DNA from: Laetmonice hystrix
Taxonomy: Eukaryota
Assembly: GCA_965235115.1 (NCBI GenBank)
Contig: OZ249436.1
Coordinates: 3,536,001 to 3,600,000 of the forward strand
Reading direction: 5' to 3'
DNA length: 64,000 nt
Below, piece after piece: positions 287-60,985 of the stretch (within the stretch, counting starts at the first letter, position 1; every line of letters starts with the position of its first letter). Below the pieces are notes generated by a model. That model saw only the letters and a list, made by a program, of their open reading frames with translations. It searched no databases and was not told where the DNA came from. The translations under genes and the position numbers were made by a program.

Positions 287-451
287 ATTAAAGCCAAGAT
301 AACTCCTGCGAGAAACCCTGATGATGTTATGAAGGACAGTATGACTGTGATGGCTGGTGCACTCTCCTCCCACTGGCCAACCAATTCAGAGATCACCTGG
401 TACGATGTGTCTTTGTTCCGGTACGGCCCACATACTGCTGACGGCTTCAAT
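287..451 (-). CDS. TMC: TMC coding exon 14
   Basis: LKPSAVCGPYRNKDTSYQVISE...VILAL; ctgacag / GTGAGT; frame differs from the ORF-track call. Confidence 0.9.
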
Positions 452-3400
452 CTGTCAGGGTAGGATCAAAGTCTGAGTGAGGGATCACACTGAACACGGC
501 TTCAATCTGTCAGGGTAGGATCAAAGTCTGAGTAAGTGAGGGATTCACACTGAACATGGCTTCAATCTGTCAGGGAAGGATCAAAGTCTGAGTAAGTGAG
601 GGATTCACACTGAACATGGCTTCAATCTGTCAGGGTAGGATCAACGTCTGAGTAAGTGGGGGATTCACACTGAACATGGCTTCAATCTGTCAGGGTAGGA
701 TCAAAGTCTGAGTAAGTGAGGGATTCACACTGAACATGGCTTCAATCTGTCAGGGAAGGATCAAAGTCTGAGTAAGTGGGGGATTCACACTAAACACGGC
801 ATCAATCTGTCAGGGTAGGATCAAAGTCTGAGTAAGTGGGGAATTCACACTGAACATGGCTTCAATCTGTCTGGGAAGGATCAAAGTCTGAGTAAGTGGG
901 GGATTCACACTGAACATGGCTTCAATCTGTCTGGGAAGGATCAAAGTCTGAGTAAGTGGGGGATTCACACTGAACATGGCTTCAATCTGTCAGGGTAGGA
1001 TCAAAGTCTGAGTAAGTGAGGGATTCACACTGAACATGGCTTCAATCTGTCTGGGAAGGATCAAAGTCTGAGTAAGTGGGGGATTCACACTGAACATGGC
1101 TTTAATCTGTCAGGGTAGGATCAAAGTCTGAGTAAGTGGGGGATTCACACTGAACATGGCTTTAATCTGTCAGGGTAGGATCAAAGTCTGAGTAAGTGAG
1201 GGATTCACACTGAACATAGCTTCAATCTGTCAGGGTAGGATCAAAGTCTGAGTAAGTGAGGGATTCAGACTGAACATGGCTTCAATCTGTCAGGGTAGGA
1301 TCAAAGTCTGAGTAAGTGAGGGATTCAGACTGAACATGGCTTCAATCTGTCAGGGTAGGATCAAAGTCTAAGTGAGGGATTCACACTGAACATGGCTTCA
1401 ATCTGTCAGGGTTGGATCAAAGTCTGAGTAAGTGGGGGATTCACACTGAACATTCAATCTGTCAGGGTAGGATCAAAGTCTGAGAAAAGTGGGGGATTCA
1501 CACTGAACATTCAATCTGTCAGGGTAGGATCAAAGTCTGAGTAAGTGGGGGATTCACACTGAACATTCAATCTGTCAGGGTAGGATCAAAGTCTGAGAAA
1601 AGTGGGGGATTCACACTGAACATTCAATCTGTCAGGGTAGGATCAAAGTCTGAGGAAAGTGAGGGATTCACACTGAATATTCAATCTGTCAGGGTAGGAT
1701 CAAAGTCTGAGTAAGTGGGGGATTCACACTGAACATTCAATCTGTCAGGGTAGGATCAAAGTCTGAGAAAAGTGGGGGATTCACACTGAACATGGCTTCA
1801 ATCTGTCAGGGTTGGATCAAAGTCTGAGTAAGTGGGGGATTCACACTGAACATGGCTTCAATCTGTCAGGGTAGGATCAAAGTCTAAGTGAGGGATTCAC
1901 ACTGAACATGGCTTCAATCTGTCAGGGTTGGATCAAAGTCTGAGTAAGTGGGGGATTCACACTGAACATTCAATCTGTCAGGGTAGGATCAAAGTCTGAG
2001 AAAAGTGGGGGATTCACACTGAACATTCAATCTGTCAGGGTAGGATCAAAGTCTGAGTAAGTGGGGGATTCACACTGAATATTTAATCTGTCAGGGTAGG
2101 ATCAAAGTCTGAGAAAAGTGGGGGATTCACACTGAACATGGCTTCAATCTGTCAGGGTTGGATCAAAGTCTGAGTAAGTGGGGGATTCACACTGAACATG
2201 GCTTCAATCTGTCAGGGTAGGATCAAAGTCTAAGTGAGGGATTCACACTGAACATGGCTTCAATCTGTCAGGGTTGGATCAAAGTCTGAGTAAGTGGGGG
2301 ATTCACACTGAACATTCAATCTGTCAGGGTAGGATCAAAGTCTGAGAAAAGTGGGGGATTCACACTGAACATTCAATCTGTCAGGGTAGGATCAAAGTCT
2401 GAGTAAGTGGGGGATTCACACTGAATATTCAATCTGTCAGGGTAGGATCAAAGTCTGAGAAAAGTGGGGGATTCACACTGAACATTCAATCTGTCAGGGT
2501 AGGATCAAAGTCTGAGTAAGTGGGGGATTCACACTGAACATGGCAATAAATGACAGCAGTTCATCTAATCACTGGTTATTCTAGTTATACAGATATAGTG
2601 TTATAAGGATATTACTCGCAGTTAGCTTGTCACAAAGTGACACATGACAGATTACATTAATTTAATATATTAAAATGGTGTTACTTACACAACAATACTG
2701 TAGCCAACAGCCACAAAGCAGAGTACTAGGGCAAGGCCAAGGAAGGATATGATGATAGTGTGAGTGCGGCCCCCGCGCCACGGTTTCCCAGACGGCACAC
2801 AGTTCATCATTACGCTGTATCGCTTCACGTAGAAGATGATGAGAGTTTTCAGGATGGCAATCACACAAAGTAATGGACTGTAGAACGTGCCCAACCTGAC
2901 AAAAACAACCAATCACACACAGTAATGGACTGTAGAACGTGCCCAACCTGACAAAAACAACCAATCACACAGTAACGGACTGTAGAACGTGCCCAACCTG
3001 ACAAAAACAACCAATCACACAGTAACGGACTGTAGAACGTGCCCAACCTGACACAACAACCAATCACACACAGTAACGGACTGCAGAACGTGCCCAACCT
3101 GACAAAACAACCAGTCACACACAGTAATGGACTGTAGAACGTGCCCAACCTGACAAAAACAACCAATCACACACAGTAACGGACTGTAGAACGTGCCCAA
3201 CCTGACAAAACAACCAATCACACACAGTAATGGACTGTAGAACGTGCCCAACCTGACAAAAACAACCAATCACACACAGTAATGGACTGTAGAACGTGCC
3301 CAACCTGACAAAACAACCAATCACACACAGTAATGGACTGTAGAACGTGCCCAACCTGACAAAAACAACCAATCACACAGTAATGGACTGTAGAACGTGC

Positions 3401-6400
3401 CCAACCTGACAAAACAACCAATCACACACAGTAATGGACTGTAGAACGTGCCCAACCTGACAAAACAACCAGTCACACACAGTAATGGACTGTAGAACGT
3501 GCCCAACCTGACAAAAACAACCAATCACACACAGTAACGGACTGTAGAACGTGCCCAACCTGACAAAAACAACCAATCACACACAGTAACTGTAATGGGC
3601 TGTAGAACGTGCCCAACCTGACAAACGTGCCCAACCTGACAAGCAATCACACTGATGACTGAGAAACTCGCCAGTTACTGTACAAATAGTATCCAGGTAT
3701 GCCAGTCATCTTCTCTCATGTCCATAAACAATTATAACGTTGTGTCTCAGAGCAACCCCATTAGTGGTTCCAAATAAAATCTTTGGCATACAAGGAGACA
3801 CCATAAGTTATCTTCATGTGTTAGCAACTAGAATATATCACTTTCAGTACGGTACAAGCATAGGTTTATACAAACTATTCTGTACTACCAGGTTATAGAA
3901 CCTACACCAGGCAAGTATCTCAACCTGGCATCCCGGTCACTTTCAGTACGGTACAAGCATAGGTCTACATACAAACTATTCTGCACTACCAGGTTATAGA
4001 ACCTACACCAGGCTGACCCTGTGAGTTTACCCTGTGAGTATCTCACCCTAACATCCCGGTTTGAATGACCTGTTGGAGTATAAAATACCTTTTCATTTTC
4101 TTGGTGACTTACCAGATCAAAGCCTGGGAGTAGATGAGGTACAGAGTGTTACGACCGATGTTAAACTCTGGGTATCCTAGCGACTTACAGCAAAACTGGG
4201 CCATTAGTCTACAAGGATATCAGAATAGAAATCACTGACAATGGCACTGGAATACTCAAATTCTTGTAGACAAATACAGGCACTACTGAAAGGTTTACAT
4301 GAAGTCAATATAGATATGTTTCATCATTATTATGAAAGGTCTGTTTGTCCTTACCTTCGGATAAGTTCAGCAAAGAATGTAATTAGCAGTGTTACCAGGA
4401 AGTCGACAATAACAAGACGGTAAATGTTCTCCCCCATGAAGTTTTCCCAGCACTGAAATGTTAAACAATCTAGGTACAGCATTTAGTATATTTCTTTGTT
4501 TCCAAGCTGAAGCAGTGAAAAGCCTTTTCCTAAATTTAAGACAAATGTTGAAACCACTTTTCCTTTTAACTCCAGGTATTGTCCGCATAGACAAATTTCC
4601 ACGACTTACTGTCAATAACAGTGAATAACCCCTTACCGGTCTACACTGTGTGTCCTTGTCCAGCCACTTGCGATCAGCACAGTCGACATTGTCAAACCAG
4701 AAGTAGATGAGGATGGCAAGGGTTGTTATGTAGAGTGTGATTGTGCTGGAAATGTAAACAACCATTGTTACAACAACGGTAAAACTGGACAACCTCAACA
4801 CTATACACTGGTATGATGTCTTTTTTTTGTGGCTGAATTTGACTGAGTTTGCTCTTAAAGCAAACACCAACTATTTCTTATTTCAGTGACTCCAAAATGC
4901 AGACATGGGCTGTTAGGTTAGATAAGGGTGTAGACCACATAATTCAATAAATGTATACCCACAGAAATGAAGAAATCTAATGAAACTCAACATTCCACTG
5001 TTTTCGCTATGAAGTGATCGGCTTATGGCTGGTTGTTGACATAACAGGTATTTTTCTTACAGATCAACCCTGCTCTCCTCAGATCCTCATAATGTAATAC
5101 TAGATGCTCTTCATCAGACAAGGACTTCCAGAATCCTGCCAAACCCTTGCTAGTAAAACATCTCGTATTATATACCAATGTACACCATCTAACTTCTCTG
5201 TATATTTGTAACACTTACAGTGTCATTGTAAGGTAAAGCTCAACCCTTGGGTTTGTATAGGTCTCAAAGCTCGCCAGAATGGAGAAAGCAAACGGTAAGA
5301 TATATTTGTAACACTTACCGTGTCATTGTAAGGTAAAGCTCAACCCTTGGGTTTGTATAGGTCTCAAAGCTCGCCAGAATGGAGAAAGCAAACGGTAAGA
5401 TATATTTGTAACACTTACCGTGTCATTGTAAGGTAAAGCTCAACCCTTGGGTTTGTATAGGTCTCAAAGCTCGCCAGAATGGAGAAAGCAAACGGTAAGA
5501 TATATTTGTAACACTTACCGTGTCATTGTGAGGTAAAGCTCAACCCTTGGGTTTGTATAGGTCTCAAAGCTCGCCAGAATGGAGAAAGCAAACGGTAAGA
5601 TATATTTGTAACACTTACCGTGTCATTGTAAGGTAAAGCTCGACCCTTGGGTTTGTATAGGTCTCAAAGCTCGCCAGAATGGAGAAAGCAGACGGTAAGA
5701 TATATTTGTAACACTTACCGTGTCATTGTAAGGTAAAGCTCAACCCTTGGGTTTGTATAGGTCTCAAAGCTCGCCAGAATGGAGAAAGCAAACGGTAAGA
5801 TAAAGTTGATTGCTGAGATGACAAGGGGAAGTGCCATCGTTGTCAGAAATTGGTCTTCACTCTGAAACAGACAATGTTCCCAGTACAACTAGGCGACATG
5901 TTTCACAAGACAAAGAACACTTTTCTCTAATATTTGATAGATTTACTCACACTGACACATTCGTTTAGTTCTTGCCTTTACACTTAGACTTCACGAACAT
6001 ATCTTATCTTACTGCATTAATTTCTTACTTTTAATGACTGCATCGTTGATATGAACCACACCAGGTATCCTGAGCCAGCAATCAAACCAATGACAATAAG
6101 ATTGGTACAGATACGGAATAGGATCAACCCGCAGTACTGAGACCGAGTTCGGTGAACATCTGACTTCTTGAAGACAGACAAGTATTCCTGAAACATTGCC
6201 ATAACATTATATAATCAACATACACATGTAATTGTTTCAATATCAAAACACGATAACCAGTTCTGAGCAGTACACTGGTTACAATACCGGTAAACTCACC
6301 AACCTGTAACTCCTTGAACACACTTTGTTGTTTCAGGTTTGAGCTGTACACTGGTTACAATAAACTCACCAACCTGTAACTCCTTGAACACACTTTGTTG

Positions 6401-9400
6401 TTTCAGGTTTGATCAGTACACTGGTTACAATAAACTCACCAACCTGTAACTCCTTGAACACACTTTGTTGTTTCAGGTTTGATCAGTACACTGGTTACAA
6501 TAAACTCACCAACCTGTAACTCCTTGAACACACTTTGTTGTTTCAGGTTTGATCAGTACACTGGGTTACAATAAACTCACCAACCTGTAACTCCTTGAAC
6601 ACACTTTGTTGTTTCAGGTTTGAGCAGTACACTGGTTACAATAAACTCACCAACCTGTAACTCCTTGAACACACTTTGTTGTTTCAGGTTTGAGCAGTAC
6701 ACTGGTTACAATAAACTCACCAACCTGTAACTCCTTGAACACACTTTGTTGTTTCAGGTTTGCAGCAGCTTCACTTGTAATGGTGTAGTCCCAGCCACAG
6801 AAGACTTTGGTAACAAAACGCAACTTTAACATGCCCGCTCCATCTATAAAGGTCTTTTTGTATGACCTTGTTAAGCTAAAAAAAGACAAACAAAATTCAA
6901 TACACACTGTATTTATCATTCTTGTGAGTTCTACTGATCAATTGTATTATGTTAAGATATCAACTATATTGGTTTATGGCTCTTTTCCCCAGAACCCTTT
7001 CAATTTAAACTGAAGGTACTGAATGAATCAGGAGAAAACATTTTTATGAGAAAAACCCTTTTTTTTCTTACCTGTACAGTAGAAATATAAGAGTAAGAAA
7101 ATAATATGCTGCCACGGTGAGCAAGTAACCATAAGGCATGTTGTATGGTACACCTTGTATAACAGTAATGGACTGGTTCAAATATGTGCCATAATATAAC
7201 TCGGTCTCTAGGAACCACCCCTGCAAAAAAAAAAACAAAAAAAAATAAATCAAAAATCAAAGAAAGAACAAAAAAACATGTTTAGGCATACCCTGGTATT
7301 TATTCTGGTTATGGAGACACAAGTTAATTCAGTATAGCACGACAGAAATACTTGGTGAGACCAGCAAATCAACTTCTATCAAAAGTCATGAAACTGCATG
7401 AGTTCCACGTCATGCTAGATTTTGCTGAGTTTTAACAACTTAGTAAAACTCCCCGTATAACGGCCCATGGTTATTTTATCAGATGATATCAAGTAACAAG
7501 AAACAAAAAGAAGAGAAAGATGACACAGAAAGTAGATTTCCCGACAACTTACAGCTCCTGTGATGAGTTCGACACCTGTGAAAGACTTGGAGTTTGGATA
7601 TGGGTTGTCCTGACTGACCCGATGTAACAGCTGCGGGATGACAACCAGGGCAAAGAGGACAATGAAAACAGGAATGTTGAGGAGGAAGAGCCAGCGGAGG
7701 AAAGTGAAATAGGATGCCACTCCTGTACCAAACTTTCCCTCAATCTTCGTCAGGTGACCTCTCCACAGATCAATAGAATACATGACCTCCGCAGTGTTGT
7801 CTTTCGTATGTTTCCATGCCTGCAAAAATTGAAAAAATACATGTATTTCCTATTTGTATAATACAATTAATAGATAGGCATGCACATATCTGTAAAAACT
7901 ATTGACTACCAGTAATCATGACATCATAACTTTCCTTTATTGAGTGTTTTTTAGAGAGATGAGATGATTACAATGCCAATTTGGGTCTAACTGATGTGAA
8001 CTCACGATAGCCATCCTGTATCTGGTCCGTTTAAACCAGCTCGGGTGACGATCTGATTCCTGACGGTCTGCGGTCTGCTCTAACCGTGCCCTGACAAAAT
8101 ACAATGTAATCGAGCTTATCAGGATAGGCTACAGAGTGTACAATAATCACCACCAATAAATAAAAACTCGATAAATTTCAAATTTCAATTATTTATCAAA
8201 TCCAAAATGTTGAAAATGACAGACTTGATTGATCTTTTGGTTGCTAGGTTGGTGTGTAGTTCCTTGATCTCTTCATTCTGAAGTTCTGAAGGTCGACTGA
8301 ATTCTGGGTCACTCAGCAGGTCATCAACGATCTTTCCCGTGTCCACTGCATCTGTTCCATGTTTGATTCTCAGGGTCTGGAACCCAGGCCTCTGTTTCTT
8401 GGCCTTTCCCCACAGAGTTTTATGCATGCGTATTGTGCCCAAAGTCGCTTTATGGTCAAACAGAAAAGTTAAAAAAAAAACGAATCACTTGGATTAGAAT
8501 CTATCAAATCTTCCAGGAACTTTATTTGTCATATTACGATTACTTTACTGTTATTATTGTTTCATAACTTTTATTACCGTTACTTTATTACCGTCACAAG
8601 TAAACAGAGAAAGAATATAGAACTGGTACACTACAACTCACAACATTTCAATACAGATTAAAGAAGATGGCTCATTATAAACCATGCAAGGGTCTGGAGA
8701 TTCTCAGTACTCACCCAATTGACGACTGGGCAGTTGTTCGGCTAAATTTATCTCCCAGTTTTCTTGTCGTGTTGGTGCACTTGCACGTCGTCTCAGACCC
8801 CCGCTCTGTCCAGACACAACACTAGATGGCTCTGATGGTGTTCGAATGGGAGCACGTCTGGCATACCGCTGTCCTGTGTGGTTCCCCTGACTATTGCTGG
8901 TGTACCCTGAGTTAAATGACCACGACAATGTGAACGGGAGCACGTCTAGCATACCGCTGTCCTGTGTGGTACCCCCAACTATTGCTGGTGTACCCTGAGT
9001 TAAATGACCACGACAATGTGAACGGGAGCACGTCTAGCATACCGCTGTCCTGTGTGGTACCCCCAACTATTGCTGGTGTACCCTGAGTTAAATGACCACG
9101 ACAATGTGAACGGGAGCACGTCTGGCATACCGCTGTCCTGTGTGGTTCCCCTGACTATTGCTGGTGTACCCTGAGTTAAATGACCACGACAATGTGAACG
9201 GGAGCACGTCTAGCATACCGCTGTCCTGTGTGGTACCCCCAACTATTGCTGGTGTACCCTGAGTTAAATGACCACGACAATGTGAACGGGAGCACGTCTG
9301 GCATACCGCTGTCCTGTGTGGTAACCCCGACTATTGCTGGTGTACCCTGAGTTAAATGACCACGACAATGTGAACGGGAGCACGTCTAGCATACCGCTGT

Positions 9401-10782: not shown

Positions 10783-11261
10783 CCTAGATTACCTGCCCCT
10801 ACACGCGATCAAATCCTGCGGTGCCAGAAGCTCGGTTATCTCTCTGTCCGACTCGGTGCCATGATTGTCAACTTTATCACGGATGGTTCCACATTATTCT
10901 GAAACAAATTAAAATCACAATATAGCTCATGATCACCTTTTTCCTCTTAGTACATGTTCCACTGGTTAAAACGAAGATAGCCATCATTGGTGACAATGTT
11001 AGCACATGGCTTTGAAATGGTCGATACCTGTCATTTGACTGGTTCATTCTCTGGCTTGTTGACTAATCACATACCACAGATTTTACACAGCCAATGATGA
11101 GTTTGTCTGTGATAAAATAATGCCAATTAGGAACACAAACCGGTGGACAGATGGTGATTAAACCTGACAATGGGATAATCGTTGAAAAATCCCATGCTCG
11201 GGTAAACTCGGGTTCATGTGAGTAGAGTAGAAGCCCATGGCCAGACGTGAAGTAGTCACGA

Positions 11262-16130: not shown

Positions 16131-16601
16131 AAACAATTAATGATTGTTTGCATTTTTACTATAACAGGCGCGTAGCCAGCATTTTCCATTGCGGGGGGGG
16201 GGGGGGGGGGCGCGCGTTTCATAGGATTTGGGACCTGTCACCTCTAAAAGAAAAGAGCTATTAAAAATAAAACCAAATAGCTGTATAGGCCTATCTAAAT
16301 CTATCTAAATGACATAGGCAGCGGAAGATAAAATTGGTTGATGTGTGTGTAGCCTATAGGGGGGGGGGGGGGTCTGGATGGAAGCGGGCACATAGGTGGG
16401 GCGGAGAAGGGGGGGTTCTAATCCCAGACTCCCCCCCCCCCCCCGAAACCTTACCCGCATGACGTCAGCTATGGTGTGGATTGGAGCTTGAGCACTAGAT
16501 TCTGTTATAGCTACATTTCCCTTCATGTGTAATTCTGAAGGCTTAATTTCCTTTTATATATTGTATACGTTAACTTGGCATTCTTATGTTAGTAGGCCTA
16601 A

Positions 16602-21929: not shown

Positions 21930-22229
21930 ATGTCTGTGATTAAGCACGGCGGGATCTTCATTAGTTGTATCCTTCTACATCTGGTGGTGTTACCTGTGGT
22001 GAACAGTAAGCCGGCCAGGCATGGCAGCCCACCAATAGATCCAGCCTCTTTAGTCCGGTTCAGCCCTGAACACCGACCAACCTGTGTCTATAATAACGAC
22101 ACATACCCAGCTGGACACAAGTTCCGACCAACTCTCTGTACCTACTGTCGCTGTCCAAGGCGTGGAGGACGGCCGATCTGTGCAATCCAAGACTGTTATG
22201 CCGAGCCCAGCTGTGTCAAATATCATAAG
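21930..22229 (+). CDS. VWC-domain gene coding exon 1
   Basis: MSVIKHGG...signal peptide...CTYCRC...CVKYHK; donor AAG/GTGAGG. Confidence 0.9.
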
Positions 22230-38854: not shown

Positions 38855-39784
38855 AGACACACTAGGTGGCGACACAGTCTGCCAGCAAACCGCGCCAAGC
38901 GAGAGGCACGTGGGCGCACGTGGACGTTATAATCTCGATACTTGATAAGCTCTGTATAGATCTAATCTAATCAGCGCGTGACAGGATAGACAGACCGTCG
39001 GCTAACCTATTCGTGGGATATTGACGTGTGGTACGGCCACGTGGCGTTTTAACAAAAACTATTTTAAAATAGACATAGATACAGATCTCTGCTGCATGAT
39101 CGAGCGATGTGACCGAGAGGGTCCAATAGACCAAGCCCAGAAGGAGATATAATGGACCAGGCATAAAAGTCCGTCCCTCATTCGCCAGAACTATAGTTCA
39201 AATATTTTCGTTTGTTGGGCATTCACATAGAAACATAAGAACAGGGGAATAAGCTTGGCCTCTCTGCTTGTATACTTCGGCCTATGTTTTCATTAGCCAT
39301 CAAATGGGCGGAAAAGGGAGATAGCGTCCACCGAAAAGATAGTTTAGACCTATATGTAGGCCTATAGGCTTATATCCTGAGCCCCCCCCCACACACACAC
39401 ACACACACGCTGCTCCAGTTGATCGCCACCACCAGTTGCAGTTGAAGACGACTATAGTCAGTGGGTGAGCTGTTACGATTATGACACGAAGTACTCGGCC
39501 TATACATGTACATCGGGGTCAATCATCAAAACAATGTCAGGAGGGAAGAATTGCAATTTTGGATATGCTTTCCAATAAACTATTGTTCACATATATATCT
39601 ATCAGGCAATAATAATGAAATAGTTCTATGCAAGTTAATGATATCAATAAAATATGCTATATGTAGGCTACTAAACGATTTTGCGTCATGTGTATATACG
39701 GTATAGATATTGAAATAACCAGGGCTGACTATTAAGCTTATAGGGAAGGATTATGTAACTCGGTATGGAGGGGGGGGCGTGATA

Positions 39785-40640
39785 TATCGGGTGGATAAAA
39801 AAAAACGCCCCGAACTTTAAACTTCAATATTTCAAAAAGTAATGATTGTAATTCAATGAAATTTTTCTTACTATCACTTCATGATGTTGTCTCTTAGTTG
39901 TTAATGTTACAACTCAATAGCTTGGATAATATTTCCGTGGGGCTAAAAACAAAAATCATTGTACAAAACCGCAATGCCGGGCTAAAGCGAGTGGTAGTCG
40001 CACCAGAGTCCCTGGCCTCACACTAGAGTAGGTGGTCAATCGGTCCCCCGTTTTCACTTCATACTGCTCTCAGTCTCTTTTTCCATGAGCCAATGCACTT
40101 CCTGATCTCTGATAGGAGATATCTTCGCAACATTTGGAAATACGCAACGTTCTGAACGTGTTTCTAAACGTGATAATGATACGATTTCCCTTGAACTTCT
40201 CGTTACAGCCATATCGTCCTATAATGTTGCAGTTTCTGTGTAGAGTTTGGCACATTAAACATCTGTTTTTCTCTAAAAGTACTAGGAATAGCACATATTG
40301 TGTTATATCTAGTGGTCCACAACATGATACATATTGTAAAACATGCAAAAACTAAATATTGATTTTTTTACCCAAGGTACAATGCGGTGGATCAAACAGA
40401 TGTCAAATTGGACACCTGGCAGCTGCATGATATTTGACCTAATTCCGGCATTGCATTTTTAGACACTGATTTTTGTTTTTAGCGCCACGGGAATAAAATC
40501 AAAGCTATTGAGCTGAGACTTTAACATACCAGAGACAATATCATGTAGTGATATTAAGAGAAATTTTACTGAATTATAATGCATAGTGTTTGAAATATCA
40601 AAGTTTAAAGTTCGGGGCGTTTTTTTTTATCCACCCGATA
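39785..40640. mobile_element. ~856 bp Tc1/mariner-like MITE, copy 1
   Basis: TA-flanked, long TIRs TATCGGGTGGATAAAAAAAAACGCCCCGAACTTTAAACT; second full copy at 50748-51604. Confidence 0.9.
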
Positions 40641-40798
40641 TATGCCTAATCAAAATGTAGGTCCTATATCAAATTAATACCCAAGATATTCCATAATCAG
40701 ATCTTGGCCTATGTACACAATCTGTTATACAGGGCTGACATCACTAAAACAAAGGTCAGGCATGGCGCTTTGACTGCGCAGTCGATATGTTGGTCATA

Positions 40799-49200: not shown

Positions 49201-52200
49201 GGACGCCGTTGAAAAGGACCCTCTCAAAATTGAAGGAATTAAAAAATGTCTATGGAAGGGAGGGACGCTCTTCGAAGTCTGCGAAAGCTAGAGTACCAAA
49301 TTATCCGCAAATTAAAAAATTAGAGCCGCGGCCTCATAAAGAAATGACAATGGTTCCGCGGGGCCTTCACCTAATGACTAGGCTATATTTCAGGGCTGTC
49401 CAGCAAAGTATTGAGCGGTAAATGCAAATTATGTATTAGGCCGGACATAAAGGCCCACAGAGAATAACTACTATAACACTTGACAATAACCTACATAGCC
49501 CCGGGTCATGTCGGTGCTTAATTAGACTACATTATACATGTAGTTGGTTGGATGCTTTGAGGGTGACAAAGAAAGTGGCCTTTTTACAATATATCTGATA
49601 TAACCAAGGACGAGAGACATATAATCATTGGTATAACTATATATAAACTATGTCACGCCAGTATCACCAGTCATAGTTCGAGCAAAGGAATTCATACAGA
49701 CATTCTATGTTAAATATCAACATTTCTCAGCCCATTCTAGACTATTGAAATCCATTATAATTTTTAAATAGTTATTTTCAGAATGATGTCTGGATTTAAG
49801 GCCAACGGACGCGGAAATAGGGCATAAAATAAAACTTGAAGGAGGTTGAAATAAATATTAACCATTAGTTTTTCAGTCAGTCGCACCTAGACGATAAATA
49901 TCAATAAACAATATTTCCTCTACGAATTCCAATCGAATATTAATTAATTAGTGATGTAGGGATTGTGTAGTAATTATTAATATTAATTAATTAGTGATGT
50001 AGGGATTGTGTAGTAATTATTAATATTAATTAATTAGTGATGTAGGGATTGTGTAGTGATTATTAATATTAATTAATTAGTGATGTAGGGATTGTGTAGT
50101 AATTATTAATATTAATTAATTAGTGATGTAGGGATTGTGTAGTAATTAGATAGTCAAATGGTAAGATGTCTCTGCCTGGTATATATCCTCCGTTAGATGA
50201 CAAAACATAATCATTCACCTGTAACCTATATCACAACCTTGATCTAGATTAGGATTTCGGAGAAACATGTTAGGAGATCTAGATTAGGATTTCGGAGAAA
50301 CATGTTAGGAGATCAGTAGATCAATATACACAGATCTGTTGTATGTCAGTGGGACGACTCACACAGATCTGTTGTATGTCAGTGGGACGACTCACACAGA
50401 TATGTTGTATGTCAGTGGGACGACTCACACAGACATGTTGTATGTCAGTGGGACGACTCACACAGACATGTTGTATGTCAGTGGGACGACTCACACAGAT
50501 ATGTTGTATGTCAGTGGGACGGCTCACACAGAGAGCGGGATTAGTGACAGGGGCGGATCCGAGATTTGCAAGACGGGGGGGGGGTGCTATGGAAAAATGG
50601 CGCTTTCTCAAACGTCCCCCCCCCACCCAGTCAGTAGCCTAAACAGTCAAACTCTCTTATTTCACTCGGCTGATAATGCGCAACGTCTCGATTCCATGAA
50701 GGAAACGTTAAAAATGATATGATGCAGAATTTTTGGTCTCTGTGTTATATCGGGTGGATAAAAAAAAACGCCCCGAACTTTAAACTCCAATATTTCAAAA
50801 AGTTTTGATTGTAATTCAATGAAATTTTTCTTACTATCACTTTATGATGTTGTCTCTTAGTTGTTAATGTTACAACTCAATAGCTCGAATAATATTTCCG
50901 TAGCGCTGAAAACAAAAATCATTGTACAAAAGCGCAATGCCGGGCTAAAGCGAGTGGTAGTCGCACCAGAGTCCCTGGCCTCACACTAGAGTAGGTGGTC
51001 AATCGGTCCCCCGTTTTCACTTCATACTGCTCTCAGTCTCTTTTTACATCGCCAAAGCACTTTCTGATCTATGATAGGGAATTATCTTCCCATTATTGGG
51101 AAATAAGCAGCGTTCTGAACGTGTTGCTAAACGTGATAATGATACGATTTCCCTTAAACTTCTGCTTACAGTCATATCGTCCTAATGTTGCAGTTTCTCG
51201 GTAGGGTTTGGCAAATTAAACATCTGGGTTTCTCTAGAAGTACTAGGAATAGGACATAATTTATTATATCTAGTGGTTCACAACATTATACATATTGTAA
51301 AACATGCAAAAACTAAATATTGAAAATGTTTTTACCCAAAGTACAATGCGGTGCATCAAACAGGTATCAAATTGGACACCTGGCAGCTGCATGATATTTG
51401 ACCTAATTCCGGCATTGTGTTTTTAGACACTGATTTTTGTTTTTAGCGCCACGGGATTAATATAAAAGCTATTGAGCGGAAACTTTAACATACAAGAGAT
51501 AATATCATGAAGTTATATTAAGAGAAATTTTATTGAATTATAATGCAAAGTTATTGAAATATTAAAGTTTAAAGTTCGGGGCGTTTTTTTTTATCCACCC
51601 GATATATCAAGGTTTTCATCTGGCTATATGTGTACAACAGGAAATCCTCTGACTTGATATCATGAAGAATCTCCAACCCAGCAAGATCAGACAATATGTG
51701 ACGGACAGTTGTCACAATGGTTCGTTCAGAGTAGGGGTCTCTGTATAGGTTATCATCTGACTTGATATCATGAAGAATCCCTTTATAAACCCAGCAAGAT
51801 CAGACAATATGTGACGGACAGTTGTCACAATGGTTCGTTCAGAGTAGGGGTCTCTGTATAGGTTATCATCTGACTTGATATCATGAACAATCTCCTAGTA
51901 AACCCAGCAAGATCAGACAATATGTGACGGACAGTTGTCACAATGGTTCGTTCAGAGTAGGGGTCTCTGTATTATATATCAAGTTTATCATCTGACTTGA
52001 TATCATGAAGAATCTCCATGTAAACCCAGCAGGATCAGACAGTGTTTGTGATGGAGAGTATACACAATATGGTTCGTCCGGAGTAGGCCTATATCAAGGT
52101 TATCCTCTGACTTGATATAAAAAATCTCCATGTAAACCCAGCAAGATCAGACAATATGTGGTGGACAGTTATCACAATGGTTCGTTCAGAGTAGGCAGTG

Positions 52201-55200
52201 GCGGATCCAGCAGTGGGGGGGGGGGGGGGGCTTTGGGGGCTTAAGCCCCCCCCCCCCCCAGCTGACTCCAGATTTTTTTTCCACGGGGATTAAATACTCT
52301 CTGTATTCCAATCTTTCCCAGGGTTGACCGCGCCGGTCTCACATGTATCTAGCCCCCCCCCCCCCCCCCCAGTTGCAAAATCCTGGATCCGCCCCTGGGG
52401 ATCTCTGTATTAGGCCTATATATCAAGGTTATCATCTGCCTTGATATCATGAAGAATCTCCTAGTAAACCCAGCAGGATGTGGTGGACATCACAATGGTT
52501 CGTTCAGAGTAGGGGGAGGGTCTACTTGTTGTAGTCAGTGGGCAGTACCACGTAGGCTGCTCGCATTGTGATCAACCGATTTCAACAAGTCGTATTAACC
52601 GCATAACTGATAAAATCAATCATTAAAATGATTTATAAAATGAATCATTAAAATGATTAAAAAGACGCCATTGGAAGCACTTCTCCCCCCAACGTAGGGA
52701 TGAGATTGAAGCAGCTGTCACATAGTTCTACTTGTAGAATCTACTCAGACCTACTCAAACAATAGCCTTGTATTAGTGGGTCAATTGTTTTTGTCTTTCA
52801 GCATTCACAAGCCGTTAATTTCTTCATTGATTATGATAAGAGCCAAGGCAACTACATTGTGGACGCTGATGGGAATGTACTCCTCGACATGTTTACTCAG
52901 ATATCTTCTATACCAATCGGTGGGTCACGTGACTTTAACTTTACACTTCTTAAAACACTTAAATAACTCTTTACATGCAAATAGATGTAATTGTCTGGTT
53001 GTAGGGGGTACTCTGTCTCAGTTTCGGCGAAAGAGGGCCCACCAGTGTGTAATTTGCGGGGGGGGGGGGTCCCCTCTTTTTCCGCGAAGTATACTGCCAA
53101 CATTTCCCACACCCATATTTGTATTTTGACGGAACGTGATAGTATACATGTACCTTTATATAAATATATTTCCATGCATGATTTTATGAGTCACTCTCAC
53201 ACAGAAAAAATGTGTGATTATTTTTTTCAGGATACAATCACCCAGCTCATATAGCGGCGGTTCAGAACCCGGCAAACCTTGTAAGTCATCAACACTTCTT
53301 CATCAGGGATACCTGTTTATTGAACTAAATACAAAACAGGCTACAACGACTCATTAACCTCTGAATCTCCTCTGGTATCCACTATTCCAATAACGCTATA
53401 ACGCAGGTTATTTCATTATTAGACCTCACATAAAATATGACTAATACCTTACATTGAATATGACTGATATCTTTGTCTGCCGCCAGAGTAATTTCATTAA
53501 TTGATCTTACATTCAATATGACACCTTGTCTGTCGCCTGAGTTATTTCATAAGTAGACCTTACATTGAATCTCACTGGTACCTTTGTCTGCCGCCAGAGT
53601 AATTTCATTATTTGACCTTACATTGAATATGACTGGTACCTTTGTCTGTCGCCTGAGTTATTTCATTAATTGACCCTACATTAAATCTCACTGGTACCTT
53701 TGTCTGTCGCCAGAGTTATTTCATTAATTGACCCTACATTGAATCTCACTGGTACCTTTGTCTGTCGCCAGAGTTATTTCATTAATTGACCCTACATTAA
53801 ATCTCACTGGTACCTTTGTCTGTCGCCAGAGTTATTTCATTAATTGACCCTACATTGAATCTCACTGGTACCTTTGTCTGTCGCCAGAGTTATTTCATTA
53901 ATTGACCCTACATTAAATCTCACTGGTACCTTTGTCTGCCGCCAGAGTAATTTCATTATTTGACCTTACATTGAATATGACTGATACCTTTGTCTGTCGC
54001 CAGAGTTATTTCATTAATTGACCCTACATTAAATCTCACTGGTACCTTTGTCTGCCGCCAGAGTTATTTCATTAATTGACCTTACTTTGAATATGACTGT
54101 TACCTTTGTCTGCCGCCAGAGTTATTTCATTAATTGACCTTACACTGAATATGACTGGTACCTTTGTCTGCCGCCAGTTATTTCATAAATAGACCTTACA
54201 TTGAATATGACTGATACCTTTGTCTGCCGCCAGAGTAATTTCATTATTTGACCTTACATTAAATATGACTGGTACCTTTTTCTGCCGCCAGAGTTATTTC
54301 ATAAATAGACCAGCACTTGGTAACTTCCCGCCATTGGAGTGGACCGAAAGGATAAAAAATGCTCTTCTATCAGTAAGTCTACTTGTATATTTTTTTTTTT
54401 ACAAAGTATATGTATTTTATACAGCAGCCTTACGTTGTACAAATTCTTTAAACATATTACATAACTGAACATTTGGTTTGGGTTGAGGAAAGGTGACCTT
54501 GGATAGCGGGTTCAGAATAACCTCGTTACCGTAAAGGCTATTGACAATACACCGATACACAGCAGAAAATATATTTGATGTAATTCTACAAATTCTCTTT
54601 GTTAAACATTCAGATTGCACCGAAAGGACTACCAAGTGTTCAAACCATGGGTTGTGGTACCTGTTCCAACGAAAATGCTTTCAAGGCAGCCTTTATGGCA
54701 TATATGGTAAGTATTGATGACCGATGTTCCTGTTTATGGCTGTTTATGGCATTATGGTAAGTATTGATGAGCGATGTTCCTGGTTATGGCTGTTTATGGC
54801 ATATATGGTACGTATTGATGACCGATGTTCCTGTTTATGGCTGTTTATGGCATTATGGTAAGTATTGATGACCGATGTTCCTGTTTATGGCTGTTTATGG
54901 CATATATGGTAAGTATTGATGACCGATGTTCCTGTTTATGGCTGTTTATGGCATATATGGTAAGTATTGATGACCGATGTTCCTGTTTATGGCTGTTTAT
55001 GGCATATATGGTAAGTATTGATGACCGATGTTCCTGTTTATGGCTGTTTATGGCATATATGGTAAGTATTGATGACCGATGTTCCTGTTACTCTGTGATG
55101 TGTTGCTGTGCTGTGTCAAGAGGTACCGTATACGTTAATTGTCCAGTGAGAGATCGAGAGGTTTCAGTGTGTTGAAACGTTCCTTCTGATCATTAAATCT

Positions 55201-58200
55201 TTGTCTGATAGAGTTTTGTCAGTTGACCGTGCTGATTCTCCCTTACCAGTTTCCCCTCCTGAACCATCCCTCTCTCACCCTTTACAAAATCTTAGATCCG
55301 CGCCAGTTGATATGTTTTTGTCTGTCGGCCAGCGCCGTGAGCGAGGGGGAAAGTTTCCGAGTGACGATGTCCTAGAACAGTGTCTCTATAACCGTGGACC
55401 TGGATGTCCGCCACTCACCATCCTTTCCTTCACCAACGGTTTCCACGGCCGCACGTTAGGTCAGTCTGTTATTTATCATCAGTCAAGACTAGTAACCCAC
55501 ATTTTAAGCGAGAGTTCACTCTGAATGTAAGCATCAGTGAAACAAAGTAGGATTTGTATTTGTATAAATTTAATGATTATATAATTTATCTCATATAACC
55601 GGTACGTCAAAATATTTTGAGGTTATGTCATAAATGTAGGTCAGTCACCTTCAGTGCATTTGTTCAGACCTATAGGCCTACAGCCGCACGACATATTTAA
55701 TGGTCATATTTAGGCCTACGTGCGTTATGTATCAAGCGTGTGTGTCTGGGGGGGGGGGGGGGGGTGTATGTGCTGGAGTTTGCGAATGTCATTGTATTTC
55801 AGGGTTCTCCATAAGATAAACCAATAGTACTAGTAGCCATTTTTCTGCCTTGATGTCGAATGTTGAGACATTATATATTATAAGAAAGAACCACAAATAG
55901 AGATTGCACTATGGAATATATGATATGATATGATAGCGCAGTAATGATAGTGAAGACCGTATTATTAAGTGAAAGAATATAAATGAGAATGAGACACATG
56001 AGTTTCCATTTGTACGATTCCGTTATCCGTTTCCGTTATTCGACCATCTGTGCCCATTTCCTATGGGAGCGTTTCCATGTGTAGGCCTACGCTTCGTAGT
56101 CCGATTGTAGGCCTACATATAGAAATGCTCCCATAGGAAAAATGCATATCGATCGAATCGGAGACGGATAACGGATAACGGATAACGGAAACGTACACAT
56201 GGAAACGCGGCTTAATCATATCTTCAATAGATTAAGCAGAACAGTTCCAAGTTCCAGCTAAAACCCATACTATACCAGTAGGCCTATCAGTCATACAGTT
56301 ATTCCCTATGGTAGTTGTATTCAAAACTTCATTTATTGCTTATACCATATCGTTGTAATATAAACAGGGAACGCTGACGCAGGATGTTTTCCTATGCCTA
56401 CTTAGTACTATATATGTTTGTTCTCTTTAATTGTTTAGTTTATTAAGATTTCTTTATGTGTAGGTAGCCTAAGTGTGACCCACACCAAATGGATACATAA
56501 AATCGACATCCCACCGTTTGACTGGCCAATCGCGTCTTTCCCTGGTTATAAATACCCGCTGGAAGATCACGTAGAAGATAACAGACATGAAGATCAGCGT
56601 TGTCTTAATGAGGTAATCCGATCCGTGAGCTCAGGTTAATCCTTACACAGACTGTGCTGACACCTGGTGACAGCTTCAAGTAATATGTTATTTTTGTTCA
56701 ACACAGGATTGTGTTGGAATTTCAATGGAATGACTTCCACTTGTCATTCACGTGAACGAATGACTAGACCCTCCCTAGACTTTACTGAATTATTCCATGG
56801 GGCATTAGTAGGAATGAGCACCGGCAGCCAAAGGAAATGTAGCAAAACTCAGCAATGAATGTGAGTGGCTGTCGTCACAGTATGATCGTCGCAAAAGGAC
56901 AATGCGAAAAACTTATCGACTAAACAAATTTCTGTCTGAAAGTTTTAGATTTAGAAGTTATCATATCCTGTCGCACTATTATAAGACTATGATTTGTGAT
57001 TCCCATTATACTGCAGCGCAAAGAAATAATTATAGTCAAGAATAAGAATCTTTCAGATAAGTTTTTTTATCCGAATTTATTAAGCATGACTCGAGTTAGT
57101 AAACTAAAATTAATTTGGTCTGACGTAAAATGGAAGGCGTCTTATTAGACAAGAAGTGCTAAGAAGACGTTGGAATATCTCGTAAATTTAGCTAGTTATA
57201 TTAGTATATTACATGCATGTTCCAGCCTTACAGGCCTACACCTGGCACTTGTTCCTTACGATATGCACAAACTTTTATTCTAAGTCTGGATATAACTATA
57301 TGACTCAGGGCAGTTTATAAGACTTTGTATATTTGCTGTTTATCATTCAGGAATGACAAAGTATTTTGTCAACAAATAAGACAGCTAAAAAAATTCAAGT
57401 AGTTCTTATTGGTACTAGCCTACAACGTATGACGTCGGTAAGGTATGAACGCGAGACAAATTTTTCACCATTTTTTTCTGCGTCATTTGTACATATAGGA
57501 TCTCTCGCAACCTCTCACGCTAGGTGGCAGTACAAGCTAGATAGCCCGACCTTGGATTGGCCTGAAGCTGTGTTTCCCACTCTGAAATATCCGCTCGACC
57601 AATATGAACAAGAAAACCGTGCCAGTGAGGAAAGATCTCTCAACGAGGTACATAATAGTCAGCAAGGTTCTGTTCGTTATCAGACTATACTCACTCGATG
57701 TCGGAAACTTCACCAGGCTCACGGCAGGAGGAACGAGACACGAGATATACCGGCCATGGAAATTTGGGCATCATTCAGGAAATATTTGTAACTGGTGGAA
57801 TGAATTTATTCCTATAAAATCTTCCATCCATGCCACGCTGCTGATGCAGTGATGGAAGATTTTATACTCGTGTAAAAATTTCAACGATTTTTTGTAGGCT
57901 TGCTGACACGTTGACTTGGCTGTGAGTGCATTGTATATATATTATATGTAGTGGCGTGCTTTCTGGTCCTATTTCTCAAAATCAATGACTTTCTTACATC
58001 GGTGTGGCTTACCTGAGCATTGTCAAACCATAGAACTGTAATATGCGAACTTTAGGTAGTGAATTTAAATTACTTGAAGGCATTTTATCAGTCTGTAATA
58101 TCGTTCAAAAAGAAGGAATTACACATTGCTCAGCAAAAGTAAAATACTTTAAATATGTACCTTTGTTATCACCTAGTAGTATGTGCACGCTTGTTTTAAT

Positions 58201-60985
58201 TGACAAGTGTATCTTGCGGTCAGCACTGTTATACTTCACCAAGGGGAATATATACTACTTGTGTAACATGCCTACGACCACTTAAATTGATCTTTCTAGG
58301 TGCGAGAGAAAATTGCCGAGTACAACAGTCGGGGAACTCCAGTGGCTGGAGTAATTGTAGAACCTATCCAAGCCGAAGGTGGAGACAACTATGCCTCATC
58401 CGAATTCTTCCATCAACTGCAAAAAATTATCAAAGAGGTAAGACAGTTAAACTTAATAAAAACCGGGTATATTTGTCAAAGATGAAGGTTTTACAACTGG
58501 CCTGACGGGCATCTTAAGACGGCCAGTCAAACAGGTGGTACGTACATGCTCCACCCCCAACCCCACCCATAGTCCTCTTGGTGTTCCAGAACAACGCCTA
58601 CCTCATCGTTGACGAGGTACAGACGGGTCTGGGTGCCACGGGTGAGATGTGGGCCCATGAACACTGGAACCTGCCCCAACCACCTGACGTGGTCACCTTC
58701 AGCAAGAAGGCACTCACAGGTGGCTTCTTCCTCACTGACGAACTCAGGCCACTCGAGGTAATCCCTCAGACAGATGTTGGGGTCTAAACTGACAACTGGA
58801 CAATTAACACCGTCTTGGTACTATATTTAGGCCTACTTATTGATTACTAATTTGATTACTACGGATGCTCATAAGTACCGAAAATTTGAGTACTTGCAAG
58901 GTTAGACTTGGTTGTCACTTTAGAACAGCAGAGTCTCAAATCAGCTATAAACACCTACATTTCCTTGGCTTGGAACAACATGAGACTTCTATGAATGGAA
59001 CGGCATCTGAAAATGTTCTTCGTGTCAGTTTAAGTATAGTCTACAGCTAATAAAAACATTGCACTTATGTTGAAATAACATTGGTGCAATATAGATCTAA
59101 GTATAGGTGAGGATATACCATAATATTTGTATTGTCCTCTAGGGCTTCCGTATCTTCAACACGTGGATGGGTGACCCATCCAAGGTGTTGCTACTGGAGG
59201 AAACCCTGAAGGTAATCAATGACAATGACCTCATCCAGAACGTGCGCGATGTCGGCAAGGTCATCATGGACGGCCTGCGACTGCTGCAGGTCAGTAACAA
59301 ATAGAGGTCATGTCGGAGGTAGTGTAGGAAGATAGGTCCAATCATGTCATAAAGATAAACCTTTCTGTAACATTTTCAGAACCATGTTGGCCTGTTTTTC
59401 TTACCAGAGCGGTGTGTGATAGCAATTAACAAAGTCTGTTTCAATTTGTTGTTACACTGTAAAACTTGCAGTGGCCTATACCGGCAATTGCATTTAGTAT
59501 TAAGGTTTTGCTTGCAGGCAGTAGGCCTATACTAAAGGTATGTAGTGAATTATATGCAAAAGAAATAGCCTACATTGCCAGATAGGCCCTCGTCCTGTAA
59601 GACTTGAGCCGCTTTCACATGCACACGGTTTGCAGCGTGCGGCATGCGGCGTGCGTTTTTGTTAATAATGTAGCCAATGTAAATCGCCGCACACCGCAAA
59701 CTGGGGGCATGTGAACGGTTATATCTATTTTCAGTTGTTCCATTTCTGCAAAAACGCACGCCGCATGCCGCAAACCGTGTGCATGTGAAAGCGGCTTTAT
59801 TTGTTCAAAATTGTATTTGTTCAATTGTACAGCGTGTGTAATAAGTTTTGTGTATTTACAGGACCGTTTCCCAGACCAGATCAGCAAGGTGCGAGGATGT
59901 GTAATAAGTTTTGTATGTTTACAGGACCGTTTCCCAGACCAGATCAGCAAGGTGCGAGGATGTGTAATAAGTTTTGTATGTTTACAGGACCGTTTCCCAG
60001 AGCAGATCAGCAAGGTGCGAGGATGTGTAATAAGTTTTGTGTATTTACAGGACCGTTTCCCAGACCAGATCAGCAAGGTGCGAGGATGTGTAATGAGTTT
60101 TGTGTGTTTACAGGACCGTTTCCCAGACCAGATCAGCAAGGTGCGAGGATGTGTAATAAGTTTTGTATGTTTACAGGACCGTTTCCCAGACCAGATCAGC
60201 AAGGTGCGAGGATGTGTAATAAGTTTTGTATGTTTACAGGACCGTTTCCCAGAGTAGATCAGCAAGGTGCGAGGATGTGTAATAAGTTTTGTGTGTTTAC
60301 AGGACCGTTTCCCGGACCAGATCAGCAAGGTGCGAGGATCTGGAACGTTCTGTGCCATGGATGGCAGGGACCCCCAGCACAGAGATAAGATAGTGGCAGA
60401 GATTCGCAACAGTGGTACGTTACCAGCCTTGATTCTTGTTAACGTTAGATTCACAACAGTGGTACGTTACCAGCCTTGATTCTTGTTAACGTTAGATTCA
60501 CAACAGTGGTACGTTACCAGCCTTGATTCTTGTTAAAGTTAGATTCACAACAGTGGTACGTTACCAGCCTTGATTCTTGTTAACGTTAGATTCACAACAG
60601 TGGTACGTTACCAGCCTTGATTCTTGTTAAACGTTAGATTCACAACAGTGGTACGTTACCAGCCTTGATTCTTGTTAAACATGTTGGCGGAATAGAAGGA
60701 GAGGGAGATAATGAACTCTCTCGAGGCACTCCTCTCAGTAACCATCCTAGTCAGCAAAAAATCGGCATTAATGTTTAGGCTCTTTTAAATACTTTTATCT
60801 TTTCACAAAGAACTTGCACAAAGATTATTTCGCTATTCCTAGGTTTTTTTCTGTCTGTTCCAGGGGTTCATATTGGTGCGTGTGGGGTCAAAACGATACG
60901 TATACGGCCGACACTGATTCTGCAAGAAAAACACGCCAACATTTTCCTTAATACCTTCGAATCTGTGCTGGAGAAGTTGAAGTAG
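43191..60985 (+). CDS. ABAT: 4-aminobutyrate aminotransferase (GABA transaminase), mitochondrial, 496 aa; two predicted isoforms
   Basis: Exons 43191-43236, 48950-49089, 52802-52919, 53231-53280, 54292-54372, 54614-54706, 55333-55459, [56464-56612 OR 57499-57647], 58300-58437, 58590-58757, 59143-59289, 60303-60414, 60864-60985 = 1491 nt, open to TAG. Motifs [59 protein letters not shown] (PLP lysine), [10 protein letters not shown]. Confidence 0.96.
43366..43755. repeat. Minisatellite (ctagctgggaggctg...gcagcagga), ~32-39 bp variants
   Basis: Direct observation; ABAT intron 1. Confidence 0.93.
44258..44866. repeat. Tandem array, ~56-65 bp unit, ~10 copies
   Basis: gatatcagacacagagagtacccgtcccagtcccagtactcagctgggcgagacctgttaca. 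Confidence 0.95.
46663..46823. repeat. Minisatellite, 27 bp unit, 6 copies
   Basis: aataactggctcccaactcttgccagc. Confidence 0.95.
47243..47957. repeat. G-rich minisatellite, 20 bp unit, ~35 copies
   Basis: ggggtagattgtgggaggca. Confidence 0.97.
48950..49089 (+). CDS. ABAT: ABAT exon 2
   Basis: [27 protein letters not shown]; ttacag / GTGAGT. Confidence 0.92.
49937..50147. repeat. Tandem array, 43 bp unit, ~5 copies
   Basis: Direct observation. Confidence 0.93.
50327..50530. repeat. Tandem array, 36 bp unit, ~5.5 copies
   Basis: acacagatatgttgtatgtcagtgggacgactc. Confidence 0.93.
50748..51604. mobile_element. ~857 bp Tc1/mariner-like MITE, copy 2
   Basis: TA-flanked; colinear with and highly similar to 39785-40640, same orientation. 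Confidence 0.9.
51645..52512. repeat. Diverged tandem array, ~110-125 bp unit, ~6 copies, interrupted by a MITE
   Basis: tctgacttgatatcatgaagaatctcc...aacccagcaagatcagacaat...ggttcgttcagagtagg. Confidence 0.88.
52196..52397. mobile_element. Short GC-rich MITE (CAGTGGCGGATCCAG...CTGGATCCGCCCCTG)
   Basis: 15 bp TIRs; interrupts one unit of the surrounding tandem array. Confidence 0.8.
52802..52919 (+). CDS. ABAT: ABAT exon 3
   Basis: [40 protein letters not shown]. Confidence 0.94.
53231..53280 (+). CDS. ABAT: ABAT exon 4
   Basis: [17 protein letters not shown]; polyT-cag / GTAAGT. Confidence 0.93.
53447..54310. repeat. Tandem array, ~58 bp unit, ~15 copies, containing the acceptor of ABAT exon 5
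   Basis: ...ggtacctttgtctgccgccag/agttatttcat repeated. Confidence 0.96.
54292..54372 (+). CDS. ABAT: ABAT exon 5
   Basis: [33 protein letters not shown]. Confidence 0.93.
54614..54706 (+). CDS. ABAT: ABAT exon 6
   Basis: [37 protein letters not shown]. Confidence 0.94.
54692..55089. repeat. Tandem array, 50-51 bp unit, 8 copies, containing the donor of ABAT exon 6
   Basis: Donors at 54707, 54757, 54808, 54858, 54909, 54960, 55011, 55062. Confidence 0.96.
55333..55459 (+). CDS. ABAT: ABAT exon 7
   Basis: RRERGG...[21 protein letters not shown]. Confidence 0.94.
56001..56211. mobile_element. Palindromic MITE remnant
   Basis: gtttccatttgtacg..tccgttatccg / cggataacggaaacgtacacatggaaac inverted arms. 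Confidence 0.65.
56464..56612 (+). CDS. ABAT: ABAT exon 8a (mutually exclusive, canonical-like)
   Basis: [50 protein letters not shown]; gtgtag / GTAATC; 149 nt. Confidence 0.92.
57499..57647 (+). CDS. ABAT: ABAT exon 8b (mutually exclusive, divergent)
   Basis: [50 protein letters not shown]; atatag / GTACAT; 149 nt. Confidence 0.88.
58300..58437 (+). CDS. ABAT: ABAT exon 9
   Basis: VREKIAE...[19 protein letters not shown]...IIKE. Confidence 0.95.
58590..58757 (+). CDS. ABAT: ABAT exon 10
   Basis: [26 protein letters not shown]...DVVTFSKK...RPLE. Confidence 0.96.
59143..59289 (+). CDS. ABAT: ABAT exon 11
   Basis: [20 protein letters not shown]...GLRLLQ. Confidence 0.95.
59607..59796. mobile_element. 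Harbinger-like MITE
   Basis: TIRs agccgctttcacatgcacacggtttgc / gcaaaccgtgtgcatgtgaaagcggct. Confidence 0.82.
59835..60339. repeat. Tandem array, 63 bp unit, 8 copies, containing the acceptor and start of ABAT exon 12
   Basis: Acceptor AG ends at 59861, 59924, 59987, 60050, 60113, 60176, 60239, 60302. Confidence 0.97.
60303..60414 (+). CDS. ABAT: ABAT exon 12
   Basis: [20 protein letters not shown]...EIRNS-G. Confidence 0.93.
60400..60680. repeat. Tandem array, 47 bp unit, 6 copies, containing the donor of ABAT exon 12
   Basis: agattcacaacagtg/gtacgttaccagccttgattcttgttaacgtt. Confidence 0.96.
60864..60985 (+). CDS. ABAT: ABAT terminal exon 13
   Basis: [40 protein letters not shown] (TAG TAG). 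Confidence 0.94.

Follow-up and report, generated by a model that had tools for sequence, protein, structure and literature searches.

What places tandem repeats on the splice junctions of a gene, and how is such a junction then spliced? Both questions are raised by a 64,000-nucleotide (nt) stretch of the genome of the errant polychaete Laetmonice hystrix (GCA_965235115.1, contig OZ249436.1, positions 3,536,001 to 3,600,000, hereafter the window), in which a TMC-family gene, a gene for a secreted protein with a VWC domain, and the GABA aminotransferase gene ABAT all carry tandem arrays across exon-intron boundaries, each duplicating a splice site many times over. A sequence-only reading of the window had proposed that local tandem duplication is biased to splice junctions in this genome. 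We conclude, with a probability of about 0.72, that these arrays, which belong to the class known as mirage minisatellites, are tolerated by-products of ordinary minisatellite birth, in chromosome-end regions that are very minisatellite-rich.

Tandem arrays duplicate splice sites in three genes of the window

Tandem Repeats Finder (TRF) recovered all 11 junction arrays named in the sequence-only reading, to within about 30 bases or less, with units of 32-100 bp, exactly the range given there, in 5.9-36 copies. The arrays take up 11 of 56-57 modelled junction ends (non-coding first exons left out), in agreement with the earlier estimate of 11 in about 58. In each of the 11, the unit runs across an exon-intron boundary with the splice site duplicated, and the genuine junction lies within the terminal unit on the exon side, consistent with the proposal that arrays expand into the intron and leave one exon intact. 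Between 5 and 35 near-identical copies per array retain the GT or AG (11/11 arrays), the number of decoy sites that had been predicted. The exon content of the units varies from 9 to 84 nt, and every unit matches its own exon edge, indicating a local origin from the gene's own sequence. The units were said to be mutually unrelated, and this was upheld, with a best pairwise score of 21 among the 11 window units compared to a mean shuffled maximum of 20. No single element shared by many junctions, as for a transposon or introner, was found in the window, pairwise unit scores being at shuffle level (terminal repeats and target-site duplications were not searched). Altogether, 30 hand-merged arrays make up 29% of the window, which bears out the suggestion of very active local tandem duplication. 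The three genes and their junction arrays are:

287..10898, minus strand: TMC-family gene, 14 modelled exons, extending past the left end of the window
443..2544, minus strand: TMC, acceptor side; 36 copies of a 60-bp unit that holds 9 nt of exon; exon 451-287, 35 decoy AGs
2858..3642, minus strand: TMC, acceptor side; 15 copies of a 51-52-bp unit that holds 38 nt of exon; exon 2895-2689, 13-14 decoys
5201..5802, minus strand: TMC, donor side; 6 copies of a 100-bp unit that holds 84 nt of exon; exon 5861-5719, 5 decoys
6264..6768, minus strand: TMC, donor side; 7 copies of a 70-bp unit that holds 44 nt of exon; exon 6866-6725, 6 decoys
8844..9900, minus strand: TMC, acceptor side; 12 copies of an 88-bp unit that holds 63 nt of exon; exon 8906-8715, 11 decoys
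21930..38857, plus strand: secreted VWC-domain gene, 3 coding exons
22206..23026, plus strand: VWC, donor side; 26 copies of a 32-bp unit that holds 24 nt of exon; genuine donor follows 22229, with 23 decoys
37942..38064, plus strand: displaced copy of the VWC acceptor array with upstream flank, 2.8 units, about 320 bp upstream of the main array
38387..38741, plus strand: VWC, acceptor side; 8 copies of a 44-45-bp unit that holds 33 nt of exon; exon start 38709, 7 decoys (10 including the displaced copy)
48949..60990, plus strand: ABAT gene, 13 modelled exons, including a duplicated pair
53446..54311, plus strand: ABAT, acceptor side; 15 copies of a 58-bp unit that holds 20 nt of exon; exon 54292-54372, 11-12 decoys
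54692..55089, plus strand: ABAT, donor side; 8 copies of a 51-bp unit that holds 15 nt of exon; exon 54614-54706, 7 decoys
59835..60339, plus strand: ABAT, acceptor side; 8 copies of a 63-bp unit that holds 37 nt of exon; exon 60303-60414, 7 decoys; a read-derived contig contains the head-to-tail joint
60400..60678, plus strand: ABAT, donor side; 6 copies of a 47-bp unit that holds 15 nt of exon; on the same exon (60303-60414) as array 59835..60339, 5 decoys

Repeats of this kind might be an artefact of assembly, an explanation to which we give almost no credence. A read-derived contig of run X3 returns by 63 bases, from 59897 to 59835, at a depth of 183 compared to about 54 in unique sequence; since, in this contig, the last bases of the 63-bp unit are followed by its first, the tandem joint is present in the reads. 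Depth likewise reached 354-448 in the bin of the last donor unit compared to 32-55 in the next, unique bin, and structured unit variants occur along the arrays. While runs X3 and X4 may come from the source sample itself and no contig spans a whole array, the head-to-tail joint answers the concern, raised in the sequence-only reading, that raw reads might lack the arrays: they are not a plain assembly artefact.

A further 32-bp array on the plus strand in VWC intron 2 (31353-31959) has units that look acceptor-like and are followed by GT or AT, with no assignable exon.

Arrays cross junctions more often than expected by chance

To obtain an expectation, each array was reduced to a single unit and placed uniformly across the gene span, with positions wholly within exons barred. 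Within the modelled gene spans of the window, 11 of 22 arrays cross a junction where 3.4 were expected (p = 1e-5); two non-junction arrays in the first TMC intron fall outside the modelled span. Since the window had been selected for its junction arrays, the test was moved to dynein heavy-chain genes, for which about 213 kb of sequence was annotated with a spliced aligner. In a first sample, with stretches taken by list order irrespective of repeat content (458 junction ends), 12 of 25 arrays cross a junction compared to 4.8 expected (p = 6e-4). For a second, top-up sample, consisting of the two richest genes and picked afterwards, the count was 12 of 26 compared to 4.7 (p = 5e-4), giving 24 of 51 compared to 9.5 for the pooled set under uniform placement. 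Junction overlap, which the sequence-only reading had asked to be compared with the background density of arrays, was thus above expectation in the window and in both dynein samples.

These numbers bear on the idea that there is no bias at all, and that short ancestral introns have been swollen by random arrays which only appear to hug the junctions. The expected hit rate per array is indeed high in compact genes, up to 0.5 for TMC, but the p-values of both dynein samples were obtained with one-unit collapse and exclusion of exon-internal seeds, and we regard this explanation as highly improbable.

Base composition accounts for part of the excess. The guanine-plus-cytosine (GC) fraction of non-junction units was 0.435, compared to 0.381 for introns and 0.511 for exons, and with GC-weighted placement the pooled expectation rose to 12.2 of 51 (p = 1e-4), or 13.8 with a stronger weight. 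With the GC-weighted null limited to 100 bp of junctions, 24 of 36 arrays cross a junction compared to 16.2 expected (p = 0.006); at 50 bp, p was 0.08-0.17. Among the non-spanning arrays, 11 of 27 lie within 50 bp of exon edges compared to 7.1 expected (p = 0.057). Because the excess fades at 50 bp, the bias is one towards the exon-edge zone, and not clearly towards splice signals. The junction excess is real, about 2- to 2.5-fold, and is best described as an exon-edge-zone bias; the bias to junctions proposed for the window therefore stands as an excess that extends beyond it, but it looks like an effect of exon edges and GC content rather than splice-signal targeting.

Counts were subject to the following choices. 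Of 36 arrays with periods of 15-200 in the first dynein sample, 11 were excluded as lying beyond the span from first donor to last acceptor or at an uncertain chain end, and three of these are acceptor-array-like; 10 of 36 were excluded from the second sample for the same reasons. One stretch (L051) was set aside as a 407-bp satellite with no dynein match, two degenerate acceptor arrays under the TRF filter were left out, and one array adjoining an acceptor with a gap was retained and scored as non-spanning. Arrays within one gene are non-independent.

Junction arrays are concentrated near contig ends

The window is part of a 73.8-Mb contig, about 3.5 Mb inward of one of its ends; the assembly comprises 35 contigs and 627 Mb. 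COX1, found on contig 35 and read with the invertebrate mitochondrial code (table 5), has only polychaetes among its top matches, led by Phyllodocida at 90-92%, which rejects an amphioxus origin, considered initially. Two dynein genes at most 1.2 Mb from a contig end have 19 junction arrays per 79 junction ends, compared to 5 per 433 for 13 interior dynein genes and 11 per 57 for the window. Junction arrays are regional, concentrated near contig ends; the rate of 11 in about 58 (19%) noted earlier holds for the window but is not genome-wide. Human variable number tandem repeats (VNTRs) with units >15 bp and GC >60% are likewise concentrated near chromosome ends, being 21-fold enriched within 5 Mb of them (PMC7608644). 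The worm units differ in averaging about 44-45% GC, and the abstract of the human study does not take up any connection with junctions (PMC7608644).

The 407-bp satellite fills more than 10 kb 3´ of the modelled part of a dynein heavy-chain gene (L051, L047; contig C13, about 1.143-1.155 Mb).

Array breakpoints resemble those of ordinary local duplications

The window and dynein genes together provided 35 junction arrays, 16 at donors and 19 at acceptors. The position of the junction was spread across the unit (Kolmogorov-Smirnov (KS) p = 0.13), and the intron part of the unit measured 11-71 nt at acceptors and 5-48 nt at donors, with no fixed breakpoint. End overlaps of 0-7 nt were found for 17 of the 35 junction arrays and, similarly, for 20 of 50 other arrays. 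The free position of the junction, the 5-71 nt intron parts and the similar end overlaps are in keeping with ordinary local duplication and subsequent unequal exchange rather than with cutting at splice sites or branch points. The exon share was below half of the unit in 24 of 35 arrays, a weak hint only (binomial p = 0.04, KS p = 0.13, one value taken by eye). None of the 73 kept arrays lies wholly inside a modelled exon, as expected if such arrays are purged.

Alternatively, junctions could be actively targeted, with breaks or flaps arising at exon-intron borders via R-loops, nucleosome edges or co-transcriptional spliceosome pausing. The involvement of donors as well as acceptors and the survival of the excess under GC weighting and under nulls confined to 100-400 bp of junctions are in line with this possibility, but the loss of a clear excess at 50 bp, the lack of a breakpoint fixed relative to the splice site or branch region, and end overlaps the same as for other local arrays make it unlikely. 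A related claim, that small tandem duplications are seeded preferentially at exon-intron borders in a transcription- or chromatin-linked manner, such that about one-fifth of distal junction ends then carry identical decoys, strikes us as doubtful. Were it true, the origin of mirages would be explained and exon architecture would steer mutation, and the genome would hold hundreds of natural polymorphic tests of splice-site choice and duplication-driven intron gain.

Two observations concern copied or shared sequence near arrays. The start of the VWC acceptor array plus about 30 bp of flank is duplicated about 440 bp upstream (37910-38064 versus 38355-38510), with unrelated sequence in between, and a displaced donor-array copy in dynein stretch L050 resembles this case. 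In L050, on the reverse strand, two arrays about 1 kb apart (7954-8760, 9718-10000), one at the donor of an intron and the other at the acceptor of another, also have about 35 nt of intron sequence in common, which suggests possible sequence transfer between the neighbouring arrays.

Context rather than site strength must select the splice site

Scores from a splice-site matrix trained on 132 dynein introns were compared for the real site and its decoys in 24 arrays. The real site was stronger in 9, equal in 13 and weaker in 2; since it is often no stronger than the decoys, context must decide. This supports the view that the site of the intact exon is chosen by its context. Use of the nearest decoy would introduce a stop codon in 11 arrays and shift the frame in 10, and in the other 3 it would add an in-frame insert; in 11/11 window arrays the outcome would be a stop or frameshift. 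Limited evidence of splicing came from run X4, which is not on record as RNA: one contig has five ABAT exons joined with the introns gone, and a GT..AG joint leads into ABAT exon-12 sequence. X4 has no cover in the bin of the last donor decoy and zero depth at the head-to-tail joint of X3, but read contigs drop rare forms, and these absences were not counted as evidence.

Exon definition favors the sites with the shortest distance between them across the exon (PMC9225289), a preference by which the first donor and the last acceptor are selected. By analogy, this exon-centric proximity rule would pick the intact exon at both types of array, whereas an intron-centric rule, also described there, would predict decoy use (PMC9225289).

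The arrays could instead be a functional device, in which decoys tune splicing efficiency, permit recursive splicing, or serve as raw material for new introns or exons. The frequent ties between decoys and real sites (13/24) fit this possibility, as do repeated AG|GT motifs in one dynein acceptor array (L052), the mirage-based model of intron gain (PMC3087553) and repeat-driven new introns in human duplicated genes (PMC2812944). However, AG|GT was not enriched, being present in 5/19 acceptor arrays compared to 75/259 background acceptors (Fisher p = 1.0); selection on frame was not apparent among the 35 arrays, with unit lengths modulo 3 flat at 12/11/12; the window units are unrelated to each other; and the occurrence of arrays tracks chromosome position, not gene type. 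Nothing in the analysis shows a function for the arrays, and we consider a functional device very unlikely.

The L052 array (reverse strand, 6396-7648), in which the aligner took one AG|GT decoy as a zero-length exon, is a natural candidate for a test of recursive splicing. Donor position +3 was C or T in 30 of 132 confident dynein introns, a proportion that seems high for an animal.

A model for the birth and survival of mirage minisatellites

The preferred reading, that mirages are tolerated by-products of minisatellite birth, can be set out in four steps. First, a piece of 20-125 bp would be duplicated in place via repair or slippage, with a modest preference for GC-richer sequence and exon edges. 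Second, the copies would be amplified through unequal exchange in distal, probably high-recombination regions. Third, arrays internal to coding exons would be purged, as the counts partly show, and arrays that cross a border would survive because one intact exon remains. Fourth, to judge from mammalian work and consistent with the limited RNA, the spliceosome would pair the acceptor and donor that lie nearest to each other across an exon, and so use the first donor of an array or the last acceptor; stray use of decoys would mostly end in a stop or frameshift, the products of which are expected to be removed by nonsense-mediated decay.

Several points weigh against this reading. Without its two distal genes, the first dynein sample gave 5 of 14 compared to 2.4 expected (p = 0.064), and the distal top-up was picked once its richness was known, with array labels curated by hand. 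The relationship of junction-array rate to contig-end distance across 16 loci was weak (rho = -0.43, p = 0.09). The roughly 2-fold excess after GC weighting over the whole gene span (p = 1e-4) is only loosely explained by ordinary minisatellite birth. Finally, the X4 joint cannot tell which unit was spliced, because the stretch compared contained one unit only.

The arrays belong to a known class

The window arrays exist as the sequence-only reading described them, but they are members of a described class, amphioxus mirages and the human F7 VNTR, and no new phenomenon. Mirages have been reported for amphioxus Adh3, the globin genes BflGb6 and BflGb9, troponin C and PGBD5 as repeats across exon-intron boundaries that are spliced normally and are unstable in length, and through which intron gain has been proposed to occur (PMC3087553; PMC3902484); their origin is called unclear in a passage of one of these papers (PMC3087553). 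The worm arrays share with them boundary-crossing tandem units at donors and acceptors with GT or AG duplicated, and overlapping unit sizes (10-160 bp in amphioxus, 20-124 bp in the worm); the apparently normal splicing of mirages may extend to the worm. They differ in their spiralian host, in reaching 36 copies, in the presence of several arrays per gene, and in a measured excess over chance with a strong chromosome-end gradient. In the open-access literature, we found no paper on mirages in annelids or on tests of mirage excess over chance.

The 37-bp VNTR in intron 7 of human F7 provides a second precedent: its first unit crosses the donor, as in the worm donor arrays, and is followed by 5-9 identical pseudo-sites, and all pseudo-donors are functional, yet only the most upstream is used (Borensztajn et al., 2006; PMC1557585). 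F7 is a single donor-side locus in a mammal, whereas acceptor arrays are as common in the worm (19/35) and require the last AG rather than the first. Acceptor arrays with identical decoys offer a test of exon definition against first-AG scanning. Previously known mirages amount to a handful of amphioxus and human loci, and the worm genome offers many; with the approximately 2-fold excess and the chromosome-end gradient, what had been anecdotal becomes a question of mutation bias that can be tested. Annotators should be aware that partial exon copies can draw false exons, one of which was placed by the aligner here.

Gene models, a duplicated ABAT exon and other features

ABAT exons come from a spliced alignment with six homologs; those of TMC and VWC were placed by hand. 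All modelled internal junctions are AG/GT without exception, and the TMC model has an open reading frame throughout. Pfam matches were obtained for the TMC domain (E = 7e-13), VWC (E = 2e-8) and Aminotran_3, the class III aminotransferase family (E = 0.015), and the matches of an ABAT exon search are 4-aminobutyrate aminotransferases. As a homolog search with TMC gave none at E = 0.001 or better, that model rests on hand-setting and Pfam. The TMC intron 4794-5718 (minus strand), which follows the 100-bp donor array, has a phase 2 donor for which the in-frame AGs drop 5 residues or add 8, none of them with a pyrimidine tract; the AG preserving the residues that we presume from the TMC7 sequence is out of phase. 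This anomaly could reflect a single-base difference, in the assembly or between alleles, or an acceptor of an unusual kind.

A 149-nt ABAT exon is present in tandem duplicate (56464-56612 and 57499-57647, plus strand), with both copies open and in equal phases. The copies are identical at 24 of 50 residues, and a transcript with both would be out of frame. In the spliced X4 contig, the first copy is present and the second is skipped, and the two are apparently mutually exclusive. The exon aligns with residues 195-244 of PDB chain 1ohv_A, and, provided that positions in the chain follow the usual residue numbering, the residues altered in the second copy include Lys203, Ile205 and His206, which are named as pocket contacts in a docking paper (PMC5137336). 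Because the four annotated ABAT isoforms of the nemertean Lineus longissimus differ solely in this segment, a mutually exclusive cassette may be common to spiralians. The phrase "mutually exclusive exons" was not found for ABAT in the literature among the matches listed.

Two similar copies of an element of about 870 bp (39765-40645 and 50745-51605) have apparent terminal inverted repeats, as judged by eye, and probably represent a DNA transposon.

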